Source: a virus
UHGV virus genome: UHGV-0000020
DNA length: 28,569 nucleotides
Strand: one strand, 5' to 3'
Position 1 is the stretch's first letter, and every line of letters begins with the position of its first letter. The notes under the pieces are model-generated. The model searched no databases and was not told where the DNA came from. It saw nothing but the letters and a program-made list of their open reading frames with translations. Positions 5,264-27,488 of this stretch are shown piece after piece. Both the position numbers and the translations under genes were made by a program.

Positions 5264-5782
5264 TTACAGACCGATATTCTGTCGGTGTGCTTCCAGCATG
5301 TCGGTACCGTTAACCTTTTCGACGAGGTTCACTGTGTCGATTTCCACCAGTTCCGAGCCGTTCATCGTCAGCTTGAAATAGGTGCATGCCAGCGAGATTT
5401 TCGACTCGGTGTCTTCGCCCTGTTTGGCTTCGCCGAGATCGATTTCCTTCTGACGGCCACGAAGGACAACTTCGACCGGGATAGTCTCGCCGGTGTCATC
5501 ACGCTGGTAAGAGCCAGCGAAGCGCAACGGTACAGATGCGGTACCTGTTGCAGCGTACAGAGACCAGAGCGCGTCATCCGGGAAGCCACCGAGCGAGATT
5601 TCAGCCGACAGCGCGTCGTCATCGAGGCCGAGGTCAACTGGCGCGGAGCCGTTCATCCCGCCGCCGCGATAGTTTTCGAGCTTGCGGGTCAGTTTCGGCA
5701 GCGTGACGGACTGCACGACACCGAGATAACTCACACCGTCGACAAACAGGTTCATGAGTTTAAGCTTGCGCGGTAATGCCAT
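5264..5782 (-). CDS. FII: Tail tube protein FII
   Basis: 172 aa, MALPRKLKLMNLFVDGVSYLG... typical of P2 FII; directly downstream of FI. Confidence 0.9.
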   Translation of the reverse strand: MALPRKLKLMNLFVDGVSYLGVVQSVTLPKLTRKLENYRGGGMNGSAPVDLGLDDDALSAEISLGGFPDDALWSLYAATGTASVPLRFAGSYQRDDTGETIPVEVVLRGRQKEIDLGEAKQGEDTESKISLACTYFKLTMNGSELVEIDTVNLVEKVNGTDMLEAHRQNIGL

Positions 5783-16948: not shown

Positions 16949-17113
16949 TAGTCAGGTGTCCTGAGTTGGGTTATCGGGTCGGATGTAGTTTCCCGACTCC
17001 GCGCCCGACCAGCCACCGGTTACAGAAGTGCAACCCCTGACACAACAGGGGGTTAGCGATTCATTCTCCCGGAATCTTTAGCCTTGCCGTGTACTCATAA
17101 CGGCGAGGTTGTA
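16949..17113. promoter_or_regulatory. Divergent late promoter region between O and P (expected Ogr-dependent); elements not resolved
   Basis: 165-bp intergenic spacer between divergently transcribed O and P, the position of the late promoters in P2. Confidence 0.5.
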
Positions 17114-18883
17114 ATGACTCACACCACAGACACATCACTGGTTAATGACCCGCGACGACAGGCGGCATTGCTTTTCTGGCAGGGGTATTCCGTGCCGCAA
17201 ATCGCCGAGCAATTGCAGGTCAAACGGCCAACAGTGCAGAGCTGGAAGCAGCGCGGTAAATGGGAAGAGACAGCCCCGTTAAACCGGGTCGAGTTCACTC
17301 TCGAAGCGCGATTAATTCAGCTCTATGCAAAACCTGACCTGACGGCCCACGACTTTAAAGTCGCTGACTTTCTGGCGCGCCAGATGGAGCGGCTCGCGCG
17401 GGTGAATCGCTACGGCCAGACCGGCAACGAAGCGGATTTAAATCCGAACGTCGCCAACCGAAACAAAGGGGAAAAGAAGAAGCCGAAAAAGAACTTTTTC
17501 AGCGAAGAGGCTATCGAGAAACTCGAAGAAATTTTCCTCGACCAGTCTTTTGACTATCAGCTCGAATGGTGGCGCGCGGGGCTGGAACATCGTATCCGGC
17601 ACATTCTGAAATCACGCCAGATTGGCGCGACGTTCTACTTTGCGCGTGAAGCACTAATGAGAGCGCTCAGTACCGGCAATAATCAGATTTTTTTATCAGC
17701 CAGTAAGACGCAGGCGTATGTATTTCGAGAGTACATCATCGCCTTTGCCCGACAGGTTGATGTCGAGCTAACCGGCGACCCGATTGTGCTCGGCAACAAT
17801 GGCGCGAAATTGATTTTTCTTGGCACTAACTCCAATACGGCCCAAAGCCACAACGGCGACCTCTATGTCGATGAAGAATTCTGGATCCCCAATTTCCAGA
17901 AGCTAAAAAAAGTCTCTTCGGGTATGTCATCGCAGGAGCATTTACGCACGACCTATTTTTCGACCCCCTCATCGCTGGCGCACGGTGCCTATCCCTTCTG
18001 GTCGGGTGAACAGTTCAATAAAGGGCGTACCGACAAAAGCGAGCGCGTCGACATCGATATCAGTCACGCCGCGCTCGCGAAGGGTGTTGCCTGCCCGGAC
18101 GGGCAGTGGCGACAGATTGTCACACTTGAGGACGCGCTCGCCAAGGGATGCACCCTGTTTAACATTGATACGCTGAAGCGCGAAAACAGCGTTGATGACT
18201 TCCGCAACCTGTATATGTGCGAATTCGTCGACGACAAAGCGTCGGTATTCCCGTTCGAAGAATTGCAACGCTGCATGGTCGACAGCCTCGAAGTGTGGGC
18301 CGACTACGCGCCATTCGCCGACCGGCCATACGGTCATCGCCCGGTATGGGTCGGCTATGACCCGTCGTTACGTGGCGACAGTGCCGGTTGCGTGGTAATT
18401 GCGCCGCCAGCCATCGCCGGGGGCAAATTCCGCATCCTTGAGCGCCACCAGTGGAAGGGCATGGACTTCGCGCAGCAGGCCGAATCCATTCGCGAGCTCA
18501 CGCAGAAATATAACGTCGAGTACATCGGTATCGATGCGACCGGTCTCGGTCAGGGCGTGTTCCAGCTTGTTCGCTCGTTCTATCCGGCAGCGCGTGAAAT
18601 TCGCTACACGCCGGAAATGAAAACCGCAATGGTGCTCAAAGCGAAGGACACCATCGGGCGCGGGTGCCTTGAGTACGACGTCAGCGCGACCGACCTCACA
18701 CAGTCGTTTATGTCTATTCGCAAGACCATGACCAGCAGCGGGCGCAGTGCGACCTATGAAGCCAGCCGCACCGAGGAAGCCAGTCATGCCGACCTCGCAT
18801 GGGCAACCATGCACGTACTAATCAACGAGCCGCTCACCGCCGCCAGCGGCCAGCAGTCATCCAGCATTATGGAGTGGAATTAA
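17114..18883 (+). CDS. P: Terminase large (ATPase) subunit P
   Basis: ATG at 17114 with GAGG Shine-Dalgarno (the track ORF starts at an upstream TTG); 589 aa; stop overlaps the Q start by 1 nt. Confidence 0.9.
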   Translation: MTHTTDTSLVNDPRRQAALLFWQGYSVPQIAEQLQVKRPTVQSWKQRGKWEETAPLNRVEFTLEARLIQLYAKPDLTAHDFKVADFLARQMERLARVNRYGQTGNEADLNPNVANRNKGEKKKPKKNFFSEEAIEKLEEIFLDQSFDYQLEWWRAGLEHRIRHILKSRQIGATFYFAREALMRALSTGNNQIFLSASKTQAYVFREYIIAFARQVDVELTGDPIVLGNNGAKLIFLGTNSNTAQSHNGDLYVDEEFWIPNFQKLKKVSSGMSSQEHLRTTYFSTPSSLAHGAYPFWSGEQFNKGRTDKSERVDIDISHAALAKGVACPDGQWRQIVTLEDALAKGCTLFNIDTLKRENSVDDFRNLYMCEFVDDKASVFPFEELQRCMVDSLEVWADYAPFADRPYGHRPVWVGYDPSLRGDSAGCVVIAPPAIAGGKFRILERHQWKGMDFAQQAESIRELTQKYNVEYIGIDATGLGQGVFQLVRSFYPAAREIRYTPEMKTAMVLKAKDTIGRGCLEYDVSATDLTQSFMSIRKTMTSSGRSATYEASRTEEASHADLAWATMHVLINEPLTAASGQQSSSIMEWN

Positions 18884-19920
18884 TGAGCAAGAAACGTAAT
18901 AAGCGCCAGCCGCAACCAGAGACCCGCAAACATACCGCCGAGACCGCTCAGAGCATGGAAGCATTCACCTTTGGCGAGCCGACGCCGGTGCTCGATCGCC
19001 GCGACATTCTCGATTATGTCGAATGTATCGATAACGGCCAGTGGTATGAGCCGCCGGTGAGTTTCTCCGGGCTCGCGAAAAGTATGCGCGCCGCCGTACA
19101 CCACAGCTCACCGATTTACGTGAAGCGTAATATTCTGGTATCGACGTACACGCCGCACCCGCTGTTATCCCGTCAGGACTTCAGCCGGTTCGCGCTCGAT
19201 TATCTGGTATTTGGTAACGCCTTTCTCGAAGAGCGTCGAAGCGTCACCGGCAAGCCGCTGAAGTTCGATACCTCCCCGGCCAAATATACCCGACGCGGGG
19301 TGGATGATGATATTTACTGGTATATCCAGAGCTACACGCAGCCGCACCAGTACGCGCCCGGTTCCGTCTTCCATTTGCTTGAGCCGGATATTAATCAGGA
19401 GCTCTACGGTATGCCGGAATACCTGAGCGCGCTCAATTCAGCCTGGCTGAATGAATCCGCGACCCTGTTTCGCCGGAAGTATTACCAGAACGGGGCGCAC
19501 GCCGGTTACATCATGTATGTGACTGACGCCGCGCAGAGCAGCACCGACGTCGAGGCACTACGCAAGGCGATGCGCGACTCGAAAGGGCTCGGCAACTTTA
19601 AGAATCTGTTTTTCTATGCACCAAACGGAAAAGCAGACGGGATTAAAATTGTGCCCCTGAGCGAAGTCGCCACGAAGGATGATTTTTTCAACATCAAAAA
19701 AGTCAGCGCCGCTGACCTGCTGGACGCCCACCGCATCCCGTTCCAGTTGATGGGCGGCAAGCCTGAAAACGTCGGGTCAGTGGGTGACGTTGAGAAGGTG
19801 GCAAAGGTCTTTGTCCGCAATGAGTTAATCCCGCTTCAGGCGCGATTCATGGAGCTGAACGAGTGGGCGGGTCAGGAGATTATCCGCTTCGAAAAATACA
19901 CACTCGAAGACAGCGAATAA
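18883..19920 (+). CDS. Q: Portal protein Q
   Basis: ATG at 18883 in TAATG overlap with P; 345 aa MSKKRNKRQPQPETRKHTAETAQSMEAFTFGEPTPV...; position next to cos. Confidence 0.9.
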   Translation: MSKKRNKRQPQPETRKHTAETAQSMEAFTFGEPTPVLDRRDILDYVECIDNGQWYEPPVSFSGLAKSMRAAVHHSSPIYVKRNILVSTYTPHPLLSRQDFSRFALDYLVFGNAFLEERRSVTGKPLKFDTSPAKYTRRGVDDDIYWYIQSYTQPHQYAPGSVFHLLEPDINQELYGMPEYLSALNSAWLNESATLFRRKYYQNGAHAGYIMYVTDAAQSSTDVEALRKAMRDSKGLGNFKNLFFYAPNGKADGIKIVPLSEVATKDDFFNIKKVSAADLLDAHRIPFQLMGGKPENVGSVGDVEKVAKVFVRNELIPLQARFMELNEWAGQEIIRFEKYTLEDSE

Positions 19921-19930
19921 CCCGCCATAA

Positions 19931-19953
19931 GCCGCCGATACAGGCGGCTTTTT
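19931..19953 (+). terminator. Rho-independent terminator after Q
   Basis: GCCGCC-GATACA-GGCGGC hairpin followed by TTTTT, 11 nt after the Q stop. Confidence 0.8.
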
Positions 19954-20095
19954 CGTACCCGCCACCATACGCCCTCAGAGCGACGACACGCCGTCGCCAA
20001 CAACGCCCACCCAATGACTCACTCAACACCATTACAACGCGACAGCGAGCTGCTGAGGCGCGAGAAAATAAATTAAATACCTGCTCCAGCGCGCA

Positions 20096-20114
20096 ATGCT
20101 ATCCCCGCCTCGCC
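20096..20114. other. cos: cos-like site (cohesive-end region)
   Basis: Minus-strand sequence GGCGAGGCGGGGATAGCA closely resembles the P2 19-nt cohesive end as I recall it (GGCGAGGCGGGGAAAGCAC); located just beyond Q as in P2. Confidence 0.7.
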
Positions 20115-20271
20115 TGCCCGCTTTATGGGTCGGTTTTAATGCAGTTGCATGAACACGTCGGAGCCGCGCCAGCACTGGCGGCGCTCACACATGACAGGGG
20201 AGGAAAACGCATGCAATTCGATGCAATAGCGCATGCAGCGCTAAAAAACGGGGAAAAAGCGGAAAAATGAC

Positions 20272-20299
20272 ATAAAAAAACCGGCATACAGGGTGCCGG
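20272..20299 (-). terminator. Rho-independent (bidirectional) terminator closing the minus-strand accessory operon
   Basis: Hairpin CCGGCA-TACAGGG-TGCCGG (20281-20299) flanked by an A-run on the plus strand, giving hairpin plus U-tract on the minus strand directly after the 33-aa peptide ORF. Confidence 0.75.
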
Positions 20300-20323
20300 T
20301 TTGTGCAGGTATTAAGGGGGGGC

Positions 20324-20425
20324 TTACTGGCCGCGCAATGCTCCAATAATGCTGTTCAGGCAACAACTGGCAATAATCATCAGAAAAATTGTCGTCCACG
20401 GATTTTCATAAACAAGCGATAGCAT
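20324..20425 (-). CDS. Predicted 33-aa single-TM peptide (hypothetical)
   Basis: ATG at 20425 preceded by AGAGGA overlapping the stop of the upstream ORF; MLSLVYENPWTTIFLMIIASCCLNSIIGALRGQ-TAA; 20-residue hydrophobic core; followed by a terminator. Below the size cutoff of the ORF track. Confidence 0.4.
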   Translation of the reverse strand: MLSLVYENPWTTIFLMIIASCCLNSIIGALRGQ

Positions 20426-20434
20426 TTTAATCCT

Positions 20435-20638
20435 CTATTTCATCATTCGAATGTGGTTAAGCAGTTCTTTGACGACCGCACCAAGTTCCTCACCGTTTGT
20501 CTGATGCACCAGGCTATCAGTAAATTTATTAACTTCCCGTGAACTCAGGTCGTGATTGGCTGCGAGGCAAATCATATTCTGCGCCCACTTTTGAAGCCAT
20601 TTGTTATCAACAACATCGGAAGGGACAAGACGCAACAT
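20435..20638 (-). CDS. Hypothetical 67-aa protein
   Basis: First ATG at 20638 (MLRLVPSDVVDNKWLQKWAQNMICLAANHDLSSREVNKFTDSLVHQTNGEELGAVVKELLNHIRMMK) with GAGGT 8 nt upstream; the track ORF start at 20647 is GTG. No family recognised. Confidence 0.5.
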   Translation of the reverse strand: MLRLVPSDVVDNKWLQKWAQNMICLAANHDLSSREVNKFTDSLVHQTNGEELGAVVKELLNHIRMMK

Positions 20639-20848
20639 AGCGCACACCTCGATTAGTCATTTTCAGTCGTATTGAAATTGTTTAAGCAAAGGCATGATAT
20701 GCGTGGAGTGGCAGACGACCAATCGATGAGCGGCGTGCTGTATATGGCACAAAGGAAAACGGCTAACGCCTCGCGGGGCTCGTTGTTCAACCCCGCCAGC
20801 CCTGAAATCAAGTTTCAGTACCGGCGGCGTTTGCGCGCTATTCAGATA

Positions 20849-21079
20849 TTAACGCCAGCTTTCGTCTTCCCAGACTTCCTGAAGGATACTATCCAGCGCT
20901 TCCCTGTCTGAATCTTTGTCGACCCCCATCAACTCGACGCCAGTCATTGAGCCTTTTTTTACCGTGACGCGCGTCGACGGAAAAACTGACTGAATTCTTC
21001 GGGTCAATTCACTTTGAAATGCATCAATGACTGGCTGCCCGATTTTCTGGTCTTTGTCTAACGTGATATTGATATTCAT
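20849..21079 (-). CDS. DinI-family protein
   Basis: 76 aa MNINITLDKDQKIGQPVIDAFQSELTRRIQSVFP...ALDSILQEVWEDESWR aligns along its length with E. coli DinI (ELSRRIQ, FP, ILQETWE motifs). Confidence 0.85.
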   Translation of the reverse strand: MNINITLDKDQKIGQPVIDAFQSELTRRIQSVFPSTRVTVKKGSMTGVELMGVDKDSDREALDSILQEVWEDESWR

Positions 21080-21082
21080 AAC

Positions 21083-21265
21083 CTACTCAGCCTCATAAAA
21101 GAAATCTTCTTCGGTCTCGTTATTTTCGCTATTTGCAAGATCGGCAATGAGAGTGAGCGCGAGCTTTAAGTCTGCTGGTTTGCAGTTCGCTATCAGAGAT
21201 ACCTCGGCTATGAATTGCACACAAGCCCACTTTTGCTGCGTTCGGCTGAAATGTTCCCCAACCAT
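21083..21265 (-). CDS. Hypothetical acidic 60-aa protein, first ORF of LexA-controlled operon
   Basis: ATG at 21265 with GGGAGGG Shine-Dalgarno immediately downstream of the LexA box; ends ...ENNETEEDFFYEAE-TAG; in frame with the DinI-like ORF, separated only by TAG plus one codon. The longer track ORF starts at a GTG upstream of the LexA box. Confidence 0.55.
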   Translation of the reverse strand: MVGEHFSRTQQKWACVQFIAEVSLIANCKPADLKLALTLIADLANSENNETEEDFFYEAE

Positions 21266-21285
21266 GAAATCCCTCCCAATAGGGT

Positions 21286-21305
21286 TACTGTATAAATATA
21301 CAGTA
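21286..21305. promoter_or_regulatory. LexA (SOS) box
   Basis: TACTGTATAAATATACAGTA, a 19/20 match to the TACTGTATATATATACAGTA consensus (CTGT-N8-ACAG), 20 nt upstream of the 60-aa ORF start and next to a TTGCCA -35-like hexamer. Confidence 0.8.
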
Positions 21306-21383
21306 GCACGTATTGGCAAACATGGGGAAGAAAAAAAATACACGCCATCAATGTATCTATCTGATATCGATAAACATTAAATG

Positions 21384-23681
21384 TTAACTCCTTGTTTGTG
21401 GCGGTGTTAACTGCTCTATACGACTCATTATTTGTTCGGCTTTTAATCGTGCAGCCTCACTTTTTGCAGCCTGAGAAGGTGCTGACGGGAACACTTCCCC
21501 GGAAGAAGATCCCCGGCACCATTTGCCGTTTATACAGCTTCGCCCACCGGCCATAAGGTGCAGAGCTTCCCCACGACTGATGGTGATGCCAGTCGTCAGA
21601 TGTATTTCGTCGATAGTTTTTTCTATCGCTGGGTTTTGCTCAGGCGTTCCGTGAACGAAGGCCGGCCTTTTTGGTGGTTTTGGCTTCCTGATTCGTTTTG
21701 CCAATTCGCGTTTTTCTCGTCGGCTTAGTGGTTTTGTTAAATCGAGTTCCGGTGGCTCGCTTTCGCTCCCCGTACAGTTATTGACAGAACTCCGAGAGGG
21801 CGCAGGAGCGCCCTTAACGTCAACGGCCAAATCAACGGCACACTTCGGCACAATTTTCCACTGTGTGAGCCGGGTTAAAATCGGAGTGTCAGCGCCGACG
21901 GCAGAGTCGTACACGCCACGAATGCAGACAGTTTCCTCGCCATACTGATTAAACTCTGCGCGCGGCTCATACAGCGTGCGCACCTGCAAATCGTCACGAC
22001 GGACAAACGGGCCACCCTGTGCATTAACATAGCCAGCCCAATCACCGGCGTCGGCGGCATCATGGACGGCGGCAAACTCAACGCTCAGACCATGTGCGGT
22101 CTCGGTGTCAGCGAGACGACGCAACTCACGGTAGACCGTCACCGGCGCGCCGCCGATAAACTGGAATTGACGGATGTGCCAGCGTGCCGCCCATGCTGAA
22201 ACGGCGGGGGCTGTCTCTTTCAGCAGCTCACCGCTTTCGTCATCGGTTTCGCCATCGAGAGCATAGCCGTCGATATTTTTTGAAATGTATTTAGCAACAT
22301 AGCCGGTAGCGCTGCCCTTTTCAGGGTCAATGGCCTCGGCATGAAAGCGCGCTTTTTTGGCTTTGTCGCTTCTCAGCTCGTGGCGGTCTTCCTCCCACGC
22401 ATAATCACGGATGATGAGGCGGACGCGCTCGACGTCTTCCGGCAACATGAACATAAGCATGTGCCAGTGCGGCGTGCCGTCGTGATGGGGCTCGGCTACA
22501 CGGATGCCGAAAATGCGGATTTCTTCCCGATGCAGCTTGGCGCGAATGCGCGCCCAAAGGCCGGTTAGATAGCTCTGCGTGTCCGAAGGGCTGGCACCGT
22601 TCCATTTGCTGTTACGGTATCCCGCTTTGGTGGTGGCGTGATATTTGGACGGTGCAGTCAGGGTGTAAAACTCCCCGACATATCCGAGCTCATTGCAGAT
22701 ATTTTCAAACCCACGAATGCGGGTCATCAGCTCGCAGCGACGTATCGCAGGGTTAGCGACCGAACCGTCGTATTTTTCAATCAGGCTGATGCGGTTGCCG
22801 TCTTCGTCTTCGAGATCCAGCCCCTTGAGAAATTCGCGCGTGCGGCGCTTCTGCTCACGCCAGTCGGTCACGCAGTTCTTACTCGCGTATGCGTGTCTTT
22901 TTTTGCTGACATTTCCGACTGCGATTTGCAAATGTTCGCGCCATGCAGCCGCAATGCGACGCAGGCGACCACGCCACCACGCATCGTTAAACATGCGAGC
23001 GATAGCCGGGGCGATTTCATCCTCACCGACATATTTCTTTGCCACCCGCTCCCAATGCGGGGGGGTAACGTTGAATTGCAGGGAAATAAAACCAGCCCGC
23101 ATGTACCAGGTGTACAGCGTTTTAAGCTCGCTAAATCCGCTGTCATCAATGTCAGCCAGTTCAGCGCGAATAAAATTTGCGATATCAGCGGCCAGCAGGT
23201 CAATATCGGCGCGCGACATGTCTGGGAGGCGGTTATATCTGGCGATCATATTGACCATGCGTGATGCCAGATATTGCAAAAGCTCAGTATCAAAATGACC
23301 ACCGAAAACAGCGGCGGATACATTGCTGTTGATACCTGCACACTCGTATTTTTTTGCGACCAGTTCAAGACGCGGCAATGTCTTTTTGCAGAAGCTGATT
23401 AAAAAAGCATTGGCTCGTTGACTGCCTTGATTTTGCTCCAGCACCGCAGCGGTGCGATAAACATCAAAACGCACGCACTCAGGCTGGAGAGAAAGCATCT
23501 TTTTCGCATGCAGCAAAGCCGCGAACATACGGTCGCGGCGATACTGTTGCTCATAGGTAAGATATGGGCTGGCTATTGCCGACCGTGGAGCGTTCCACGG
23601 GTAAGCATAGTTAACGCTTACCCGCATAGCTCGCCCATTTGCCGGCGCTGTATACTTAACATCACATAGCCGGGAGCCCAT
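21384..23681 (-). CDS. A: Replication initiation protein A (rolling-circle nickase)
   Basis: 765 aa; ...FGIRVAEPHHDGTPHWHMLMFM... and ...GYVAKYISKNIDGYALDGE... are hallmark motifs of P2 gpA. Confidence 0.92.
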   Translation of the reverse strand: MGSRLCDVKYTAPANGRAMRVSVNYAYPWNAPRSAIASPYLTYEQQYRRDRMFAALLHAKKMLSLQPECVRFDVYRTAAVLEQNQGSQRANAFLISFCKKTLPRLELVAKKYECAGINSNVSAAVFGGHFDTELLQYLASRMVNMIARYNRLPDMSRADIDLLAADIANFIRAELADIDDSGFSELKTLYTWYMRAGFISLQFNVTPPHWERVAKKYVGEDEIAPAIARMFNDAWWRGRLRRIAAAWREHLQIAVGNVSKKRHAYASKNCVTDWREQKRRTREFLKGLDLEDEDGNRISLIEKYDGSVANPAIRRCELMTRIRGFENICNELGYVGEFYTLTAPSKYHATTKAGYRNSKWNGASPSDTQSYLTGLWARIRAKLHREEIRIFGIRVAEPHHDGTPHWHMLMFMLPEDVERVRLIIRDYAWEEDRHELRSDKAKKARFHAEAIDPEKGSATGYVAKYISKNIDGYALDGETDDESGELLKETAPAVSAWAARWHIRQFQFIGGAPVTVYRELRRLADTETAHGLSVEFAAVHDAADAGDWAGYVNAQGGPFVRRDDLQVRTLYEPRAEFNQYGEETVCIRGVYDSAVGADTPILTRLTQWKIVPKCAVDLAVDVKGAPAPSRSSVNNCTGSESEPPELDLTKPLSRREKRELAKRIRKPKPPKRPAFVHGTPEQNPAIEKTIDEIHLTTGITISRGEALHLMAGGRSCINGKWCRGSSSGEVFPSAPSQAAKSEAARLKAEQIMSRIEQLTPPQTRS

Positions 23682-27095: not shown

Positions 27096-27488
27096 ATGAA
27101 ACGTTCTATTTTTGCAGTTGCTTTGCTCGCTTCTTTCTCAGTATTTGCACAGCCATCTAATTTATCTGTTCTGAAAAAATCGATGAATGAGATGCAACCA
27201 ATTTCAATTGAGGAAAGTGATAGCACCGTTGTGATTGTGCTCAACACCGCAAGCGTTACGCCAGAAATCTACGACACTGCCATTTTAGGTATCTGCAACC
27301 CCGTTTGGTTGAATAAAGAAAACACGGCATACCTTAAAAATACTAAAGAAGTACATGTGCTGAATAAATTTAGTGCCATCGGATATGCACTTGAGAAGCC
27401 ACGCGCGACATGTGAAAAGGCAGGCCAAGAACAACCAAAACAATCCCAAATTACAATTCTTTCAAACACTCATACTCTTAGTCTGTAG
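27096..27488 (+). CDS. Secreted or periplasmic protein of unknown function (moron)
   Basis: 130 aa with Sec-type signal peptide MKRSIFAVALLASFSVFA and likely cleavage before QPS; AAGGA Shine-Dalgarno; 8 nt after the cI stop and upstream of int; AT-rich. Confidence 0.7.
   Translation: MKRSIFAVALLASFSVFAQPSNLSVLKKSMNEMQPISIEESDSTVVIVLNTASVTPEIYDTAILGICNPVWLNKENTAYLKNTKEVHVLNKFSAIGYALEKPRATCEKAGQEQPKQSQITILSNTHTLSL

Follow-up and report, generated by a model that had tools for sequence, protein, structure and literature searches.

The stretch between positions 20115 and 21383 of UHGV-0000020, a P2-family prophage whose source is the ENA metagenome contig ERZ27287286 k141_241109, comprises everything that lies between the cos site and the replication gene A. 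We propose to regard it as the operon at the right end of a temperate phage of the 186/PSP3 kind (Eganvirus-type), read leftward from the same strand as A, and we put the probability of this proposal as a whole at about 0.85. The window referred to below is the entire 28,569-nucleotide stretch of DNA that was analysed. Four small open reading frames (ORF1 to ORF4; 60, 76, 67 and 33 aa) occupy the interval. The first two are predicted to be tumA and tumB, an antirepressor operon under LexA control that would constitute the SOS induction switch of the prophage and not cargo. An earlier reading made from the letters of the DNA (hereafter the sequence-only reading) had pictured the locus as an accessory island in which the old/tin region of P2 is replaced by different cargo. 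The variability of this locus in P2-like phages, the presence of old and tin in P2 and the different content found here are all borne out by the literature and by comparison with P2. The label of island and cargo does not suit ORF1 and ORF2, which form a tum operon tied to the type of CI repressor; ORF3 and ORF4 are a conserved pair and no idiosyncratic cargo.

A predicted LexA-controlled antirepressor operon

The case for an SOS induction switch is built on synteny and homology with PSP3 and 186, on a LexA box, on the match with the CI repressor and on the literature on Tum. A megablast comparison with phage records matched the interval to the annotated tumA and tumB genes of PSP3 and to the SOS operon of 186, and relatives of TumA number 212 in IMG/VR. 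The tumB start lies 3 nt past the tumA stop. In BLASTP alignments, TumB is identical to residues 74-146 of 186 Tum at 70 of 73 positions (96%); TumA shows weak similarity to Tum residues 14-60, and the two proteins taken together are colinear with the single 146-aa Tum of 186. The Tum protein of 186 binds CI and blocks its binding to the operators, and in PSP3 and Fels-2 the tum gene is split, the upstream gene coding for the antirepressor and the downstream gene for a DinI homolog (PMC3121763). In prophage BTP5, no transcript is more highly expressed under stress than that of the tum homolog (PMC7067206). Tum is not mentioned in Nilsson 2011.

The 120 nt that separate the A stop codon from tumA align with the p95 promoter and LexA site of 186, the box itself (TACTGTATAAATATACAGTA) base for base. 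This box lies about 20 nt upstream of tumA and agrees at 19 of 20 positions with the LexA-box consensus, TACTGTATATATATACAGTA. Among the TumA-bearing loci of IMG/VR, a CTGT-N8-ACAG motif is found 21-24 nt upstream of tumA in 69 of 70. All the sequence hallmarks of a 186/PSP3-type tum operon are present: a LexA box, a homolog of the Tum N-terminus, an adjoining DinI-like domain and a location between A and cos. The sequence-only reading had recognised the 76-aa ORF as DinI-like and had suspected an SOS-responsive module accompanied by uncharacterised small proteins. The Pfam match of TumB (Table 1), the LexA box and the tum homology agree with the first two points; ORF3, a member of phrog_2454, and ORF4 answer to the third. 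The tumA and tumB genes come close to being conserved core genes with known non-accessory functions, and ORF3 and ORF4 are conserved as well.

The late-gene region contains another CTGT-N8-ACAG match, CTGTTGCAGCGTACAG (5545-5560), which agrees poorly beyond the conserved tetramers and probably arose by chance.

The operon is a mosaic in which a TumA of the PSP3 type precedes a TumB of the 186 type. This combination was encountered in none of about 61 IMG/VR TumA loci that could be scored by direct translation.

Other components of a 186-family switch are encoded elsewhere in the prophage, namely CI (with the Phage_CI_repr and CI_C domains), CP76 (CII) and Fil. Identities of 69-81% to the window CI are found only in phages with a PSP3-type TumA (PSP3, SEN1, 613R3, SI22, SW9, RCIP0057 and Midge); the value is 81% for the CI of PSP3 and 31% for that of 186. 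The co-occurrence of TumA type and CI type across phages fits a cognate antirepressor-repressor pair, and the binding of TumA to CI, which we infer from the work on 186 and PSP3, is predicted for the present phage. As to CI itself, its long form is common to PSP3, SEN1 and 613R3 (81% identical), and the window protein is about 95 aa longer than 186 CI (192 aa). By eye, the N-terminal helix-turn-helix region of the window CI looks duplicated, with two similar segments of ~75 aa.

Several points weigh against the proposal. A generic sigma-70 promoter scan did not pick up the p95-like promoter at 21300-21329, whose -35 (TTCCCC) and -10 (TACTGT) hexamers are both weak. TumB scores 50.2 bits against the NCBIfam model for the host DinI equivalog (PRK10597), which has a cut-off of 111; by its sequence, TumB is DinI-like and no equivalog of host DinI. 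In PSP3, the antirepressor role of TumA goes back to a personal communication (PMC3121763), and the link between TumA and CI in the present phage is a predicted one.

The interval as a hotspot

The interval between gpA and gpQ/cos, or "TO region", is a recognised variable and defence hotspot of P2-like phages and holds old and tin in P2 (PMC9122126, PMC6823313, PMC13586616); in two hotspot studies, the mechanism of rapid cargo exchange is given as unknown. In E. coli, a "hypothetical + DinI + hypothetical ..." arrangement is a standing part of the locus, to which a reverse transcriptase (RT), a KAP NTPase and others are added (Rousset et al., Table S5A).

One could envision, on these grounds, an interval made up entirely of anti-phage or lysogenic-conversion cargo which replaced old/tin, with the DinI-like gene and the small ORFs forming an SOS-linked defence or counter-defence island. 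Besides the documented nature of the hotspot, such an origin would suit the GC content, which is below that of the backbone, the presence in relatives of a retron RT, Fic, a cytosine methylase or old/tin at this place, and the annotation of 186 Orf97, which occupies an equal operon position and, when produced from a plasmid, prevents infection by 186. We consider it improbable, however. The defence-system search suggested by the sequence-only reading came back empty: with PADLOC, none of the four ORFs matched any family at E<=1. The tumA and tumB genes are homologous to an induction module that has been studied by experiment, and they go with the type of CI; the "hypothetical + DinI" part of the E. 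coli loci is the standing component to which defence genes are added. NCBIfam searches on the four ORFs returned nothing but the sub-threshold DinI match mentioned above. By these comparisons, the window presents a P2 hotspot without a recognisable defence gene.

The GC content of the interval is 46.4%, against 56.4% in the structural block, in keeping with the earlier statement that it is AT-rich relative to the structural genes. Lower values occur in just 7% of equal-sized segments across the sequence, and the interval is thus moderately, not extremely, AT-rich.

A structured element downstream of tumB

Between tumB and ORF3, a 73-bp piece stood out by its 83-95% match to many otherwise unrelated phages. 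The element to which it belongs, here called E, consists of an AAC triplet, a hairpin and a conserved tail (Table 1). Blast searches found E in 67 phage records, from P2-type, 186-type, Klebsiella and Erwinia phages, and a pattern scan of IMG/VR yielded more than 120 loci with 104 sequence variants, in which the stem sequence is wholly rewritten and the pairing kept. In an alignment of 66 sequences, 92% of the cells in the 15-bp hairpin are paired and compensatory changes affect 13 of the 15 pairs; none of 500 shuffles reached this level, and slid controls gave 38-51%. About 13% of the stem cells are G.U/G.T wobbles. At nearly every position of the tail, conservation reaches 90% or more, and this holds even for loci that were gathered by way of TumA instead of the pattern. 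With a covariance model, the minus strand scores 88 bits (E=2.6e-25) and the plus strand only 19, which indicates that the structure belongs to the strand transcribed together with A and tum. Judging from this covariation, E is a genuine, selected and strand-specific structure.

The element directly follows the stop codons of tumB, of gp37-family genes and of orf97. It is present in 59 of 80 TumA loci, 24 of which have two copies. Wherever gpA or gpQ was on the fetched DNA, E lay downstream of A and in A's orientation (104 of 104 loci) and upstream of the convergent Q gene (105 of 105). It occurs in 490 of 5426 complete E. coli genomes (9%) and in 19 Enterobacterales species of a one-genome-per-species collection. 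E keeps to a single locus in a single phage family. Plasmid copies, considered as a possible independent context, were P2-like prophages inside the plasmids in the cases examined. The covariance model did not find it in P2 or P4.

In PSP3, SEN1 and SW9, the gp37 gene is bracketed by two copies of E, and the same cassette-like layout is seen around gp37-family genes in 24 of the 80 TumA loci. The small genes of this family (PSP3 gp37 has about 69 aa, at 680-889 of PSP3 locus L002, and a C-terminus reading ...PPPRRP) have homologs in many loci (L017, L046 and L010, for example) and very often end exactly at the 5' edge of E, also in P2-type phages without tum. The gp37 gene and E therefore act together as one unit, at times with a second E on the far side. 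Further copies of the element are located at 603-687 and 1008-1091 of L002, 207-291 of L003, 3432-3516 of L009 and 1932-2016 of L012.

E may work either as RNA, in the processing or stability of a 3' untranslated region (3'-UTR), or as displaced-strand DNA, as a priming or recombination site. In the second case, E would be a lagging-strand priming hairpin on the rolling-circle strand displaced by the action of A, or else a cassette recombination site comparable to attC or to the folded attP of CTX. The invariable position downstream of A, in fixed orientation, speaks for a single-stranded DNA form, and so do the AAC/GTT base of a stem placed directly after stop codons, the cassette-like bracketing of gp37-family genes and the presence of wobble pairs on one strand only; the route of gene exchange in the hotspot is, moreover, an open question in the literature. 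We nonetheless find this rather unlikely. P2 and P4 do without E, so that replication does not depend on it; E has no 7-bp R''/R' boxes like those of attC, and an integron-type integrase is missing; a second end and a target duplication were not seen; and wobbles at the frequency observed are far better tolerated by RNA than by DNA.

Two more specific identities were rejected. E does not qualify as an integron attC site, as only the AAC/GTT triplets pair and the four bases outside them are non-complementary (variable on the 5' side, invariant GAAC on the 3' side); no IntI-type gene was found in the locus. Nor does it qualify as an intrinsic terminator, as what comes after the hairpin is the conserved GGGTTGAACAACGAG instead of U residues, and it was not flagged in a terminator scan. 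Most copies have no U-tract, but the window copy, and only this one, has a U-rich run after the whole element (GTTTTCCTTTG), which bears on the supposed passage of transcription into ORF3 and ORF4. This run and the absence of E from P2, which makes the element dispensable for the basic P2-type life cycle, are to be added to the points that count against our proposal, as is the derivation of the suggested roles of E, ORF3 and ORF4 from position and conservation.

A scan of positions 19800-21600 with Rfam 15 (E<=1) gave no match to E and chance-level matches only, namely RsmY (15 bits) on the terminator and a lncRNA model inside gene A. The window holds no sequence complementary to the E tail beyond E itself. 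Among the matches listed for E. coli genomes, PGAP leaves E without annotation in most, and a full-text literature search with the E core sequence gave nothing relevant. A plus-strand ORF at 20672-20911 (79 aa, weak match to phrog_33524; 70 aa from a later start according to the gene caller of the source contig) overlaps E and the 3' end of tumB and was rejected as a gene because its "conservation" is that of E. Several public records treat the strand opposite E as a "hypothetical protein" (for example L008, 152-415 (+), and L012, 1844-2143 (+)); gene calls made there, including phrog_33524, look spurious.

We tentatively suggest that E is an undescribed cis-acting signal, made of RNA or displaced-strand DNA, which punctuates the cassettes of the hotspot and helps their exchange, with ORF3/ORF4 as a minimal membrane-directed cassette. 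This is a possibility that, in our estimate, falls short of being likely.

The ORF3/ORF4 pair

When present, ORF3 and ORF4 always come last before the terminator and cos. The pair is found in several Peduoviridae genera, and the cargo upstream of it varies among relatives (a 143-aa divergent gene, Fic, a retron-type RT, gp37). The ORF3 stop is separated by 9 nt from the start of ORF4, which has its own Shine-Dalgarno sequence. A word-indexed search found 8 close homologs of ORF3, and a profile search 12 representative clusters among 1.84 billion proteins. The AF2 model of ORF3 is a generic three-helix bundle (pLDDT 67), for which Foldseek returned no PDB match at E<=0.001; the top-ranking PDB structures, such as paramyxovirus P-protein X domains, all had E>0.1 and were rejected as non-specific. 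Homology searches, also recommended by the sequence-only reading, identified ORF1 and ORF2, placed ORF3 in phrog_2454 and left ORF4 without a Pfam, PHROG, NCBIfam or PADLOC family.

ORF4 is too short for the large protein search and was tested by tblastn and codon-substitution counts. The tblastn search detected a 33-codon ORF, 76-91% identical, in 15 phage records, the carriers being SEN1, SW9, SI22, Midge, FSL SP-004 and Klebsiella phages of three genera; these homologs are often without annotation or annotated on the wrong strand. In 23 copies, representing 18 distinct DNA versions, the start, the stop and the length (always 33 codons) are kept. Synonymous and nonsynonymous codon changes number 743 and 706 in the frame of ORF4, and their ratio is at most 0.47 in the other five frames. 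Because the synonymous excess is confined to its own frame, ORF4 is a real gene, and by these counts it is under purifying selection. Its product has one hydrophobic helix (Kyte-Doolittle 17-residue mean up to 2.2).

These data bear on the idea that ORF3, ORF4 and E are decaying, functionless remnants of older cargo, conserved only through phage kinship. The hotspot is indeed full of small intergenic remnants, and ORF3 has very few relatives. Still, the intact limits of ORF4 and its frame-specific synonymous excess, the rebuilding of the E stem from entirely different sequences that still pair, and the occurrence of E and ORF4 in several Peduoviridae genera, with unrelated flanks in many cases, make such decay highly improbable.

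In relatives, E is only about 60 nt away from ORF3, and no conserved promoter is evident in this spacer. Co-transcription with the upstream operon is therefore plausible, and if it takes place, ORF3 and ORF4 are plausibly SOS-inducible in the present phage. According to the annotation of the 186 record, Orf97 is membrane-anchored and its expression from a plasmid blocks 186 infection. By analogy with Orf97, which occupies the same slot, ORF3 and ORF4 might be a membrane-directed accessory module, a suggestion that we make with low confidence.

A narrower version of this suggestion would have the pair act as a toxic-peptide or superinfection-exclusion module, turned on with the SOS operon or in lytic growth, in which ORF4 would enter the inner membrane and either depolarise it or keep DNA from passing, and ORF3 would regulate or neutralise ORF4. 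The size, single hydrophobic helix, constant length and purifying selection of ORF4 are what one would expect of such a peptide, as is its tight coupling to ORF3; the pair takes the operon slot of an infection-blocking membrane protein and is also found in phages without tum, next to other cargo. The module seems doubtful all the same. ORF3 and ORF4 resemble no toxin, antitoxin or defence family, and the fold search with ORF3 was uninformative. SEN1 has ORF4 without ORF3, which argues against obligate neutralisation. When ORF4 is set against type I toxin-antitoxin systems (Hok, Ldr, TisB, etc.), it shows the one hydrophobic helix and matches no family; an antisense RNA and an antisense promoter were both not seen in Rfam and promoter scans.

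A gene of 143 aa is divergently oriented to ORF3 in Midge, FSL SP-004 and Klebsiella phages, with overlapping start codons, and has E just past its stop codon (L001, 526-957; L006, 1863-2294; L007, 1860-2291). This gene is missing from the window. Its product (p143) and the gp37 and gp38 proteins of relatives have no Pfam or PADLOC match.

Setting of the locus

The features of the locus and its surroundings are collected in Table 1. The 19-nt cohesive-end sequence of P2, GGCGAGGCGGGGAAAGCAC, aligns to window positions 20096-20114, and position 20115, which corresponds to the final base of the PSP3 record, is the right end of the mature phage genome. Together with the limit of gene A at 21384, these alignments uphold the cos-to-A limits given in the sequence-only reading. 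Its count of four small ORFs on A's strand is matched by the ORF list and by an independent gene caller, which found the identical four genes on the source metagenome contig; all four have a good Shine-Dalgarno sequence.

Table 1. Features of the cos-to-A interval and of neighbouring regions, in window coordinates
Feature	Position	Strand	Basis or remark
tumA (ORF1), 60-aa antirepressor homolog	21083-21265	minus	55/60 identical to PSP3 TumA; phrog_1993, E=7e-31
tumB (ORF2), 76-aa DinI-like protein	20849-21079	minus	Pfam DinI PF06183, E=2e-18; phrog_189
LexA (SOS) box, TACTGTATAAATATACAGTA	21286-21305	minus	Alignment to 186 LexA site; overlaps -10 of p95-like promoter
p95-like promoter: -35 TTCCCC (21329-21324), 18-nt spacer, -10 TACTGT (21305-21300)	21300-21329	minus	186 p95 homology
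Element E, about 75-85 nt: AAC, 15-18 bp covarying hairpin, tail GGGTTGAACAACGAGC-N3-GCGAGGCGTTAG	20757-20841	minus	Covariance model
ORF3, 67 aa from ATG, cytoplasmic three-helix protein (predicted)	20435-20638	minus	phrog_2454 (function unknown), E=3e-29
ORF4, 33-aa single-pass membrane peptide (predicted), MLSLVYENPWTTIFLMIIASCCLNSIIGALRGQ	20324-20425	minus	tblastn, codon substitutions, source-contig gene call
Intrinsic terminator ending the leftward operon, 9-bp stem then TTTTTTTATG	20278-20302	minus	Terminator scan
cos-proximal flank, kept among 186/PSP3/SEN1/Midge-type phages	20115-20277		megablast pieces
cos cohesive-end 19-mer, reverse complement GGCGAGGCGGGGATAGCAT	20096-20114		Alignment to P2 cosR 19-mer and PSP3/186 record ends
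Gene A, replication, 765 aa as listed	21384-23681	minus	Starts right after 21383
Terminase P	17084-18883	rightward	
Portal Q	to 19920	rightward	
CI repressor, PSP3-type, 287 aa	26224-27087	plus	

The terminator is the positional counterpart of t95b in the annotation of 186. Beyond it, megablast pieces matching the cos-proximal flank start at query position about 207-216. Some records show a protein on this flank ("aI protein" in SW9, Midge_047, SEN1_43); these annotations are probably spurious, and the flank may be terminase-recognition DNA instead of a protein gene. A search with the P2 ori nick sequence, aimed at finding out which strand is displaced, gave no match. At some distance, between cI and int, a 130-aa ORF (27096-27488, plus strand) with an apparent signal peptide, MKRSIFAVALLASFSVFAQP, lies in a stretch of 38-46% GC; it could represent a lysogenic-conversion moron, and the place a second site of variation.

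Discussion

In a lysogen, LexA would keep the p95-type promoter shut, the -10 hexamer being buried in a near-consensus LexA box. DNA damage would activate RecA and cause LexA to cleave itself, whereupon the promoter would fire. The TumA protein made under these conditions is predicted to bind the PSP3-type CI and to take it off its operators, which would open the lytic promoter and induce the prophage. TumB most likely binds RecA filaments, tuning the strength or duration of the SOS signal. Starting 15 nt past the tumB stop, E might fold on the transcribed strand as a 3'-UTR or inter-cistronic RNA with a part in processing, stability or partial insulation, and might double as a short homology island at which hotspot modules are joined. 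The same transcript, or one from a second start, would continue through ORF3 and ORF4 to the strong intrinsic terminator 160 nt from cos. As a conserved cos-proximal module, ORF3/ORF4 could be guessed to act at the membrane, in exclusion or host modulation.

The tum operon would explain how this prophage is induced, and would place the phage in the SOS-inducible 186/PSP3 branch and not in the non-inducible P2 branch. Its mosaic composition shows that the antirepressor and its DinI-like partner can reassort independently. A hotspot without a recognisable defence gene offers a baseline for distinguishing the parts that belong to the scaffold from those that are cargo. The tum switch is already known; E seems not to have been described. 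Having no Rfam family and being usually unannotated in spite of its presence in many Peduoviridae, E is the by-product of this study with the most potential. It is oriented and structured and lies on the A side of the cargo, with cos on the opposite side, properties that make it a testable candidate for a part in cargo exchange. If E is a cassette signal, it would provide a physical handle on how the hotspot swaps its cargo.

Comparison with known systems

Some properties of E inspire analogies with integron attC sites and with the hairpins of REP-type 3'-UTRs. These, too, are imperfect, strand-specific hairpins placed right after stop codons and repeated between cassettes, with an AAC...GTT stem base as in E. 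In contrast to them, E comes without 7-bp R''/R' boxes, an integron integrase or a RAYT gene, and its near-invariant single-stranded tail of 30 nt has no counterpart in either system.

The old/tin region of P2 shares with the present interval the slot adjoining cos, a GC content below that of the backbone and a content that varies between relatives. However, transcription of the P2 genes is opposite in direction and begins at a promoter near cos; these genes have a proven role in exclusion, and P2 lacks tum, E, ORF3 and ORF4. With host DinI, TumB has in common LexA control and a Pfam DinI domain that covers nearly its full length; it differs in being encoded by a phage and translationally linked to an antirepressor.

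The likeness is more extensive with 186, where the order is p95-tum-t95a-orf97-t95b. Here the Tum protein is a single 146-aa polypeptide with internal starts, the N-terminal half of which is weakly similar to TumA, and E comes after orf97. The window has neither orf97 nor t95a, and ORF3 and ORF4 follow E. Common to both phages are the LexA-repressed p95 promoter, an antirepressor gene associated with a DinI-like C-terminal half, further downstream genes in one transcript (predicted in the case of the window), the presence of E and a terminal intrinsic terminator near cos.

As for PSP3, its TumB is, by eye, about 50% identical to the 186-type protein of the window, and gp37 and gp38 are found downstream in place of ORF3 and ORF4. 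Otherwise, PSP3 (and also Fels-2, SEN1, SW9 and Midge) shares with the present phage the position between A and cos, the strand, the LexA box and the promoter. In PSP3 as in the window, tum is split into a gene for a 60-aa TumA (92% identical) and, after 3 nt, one for a DinI-like TumB of 76-77 aa; E follows tumB in both, and both phages have the 287-aa type of CI (81% identical) upon which TumA is predicted to act.

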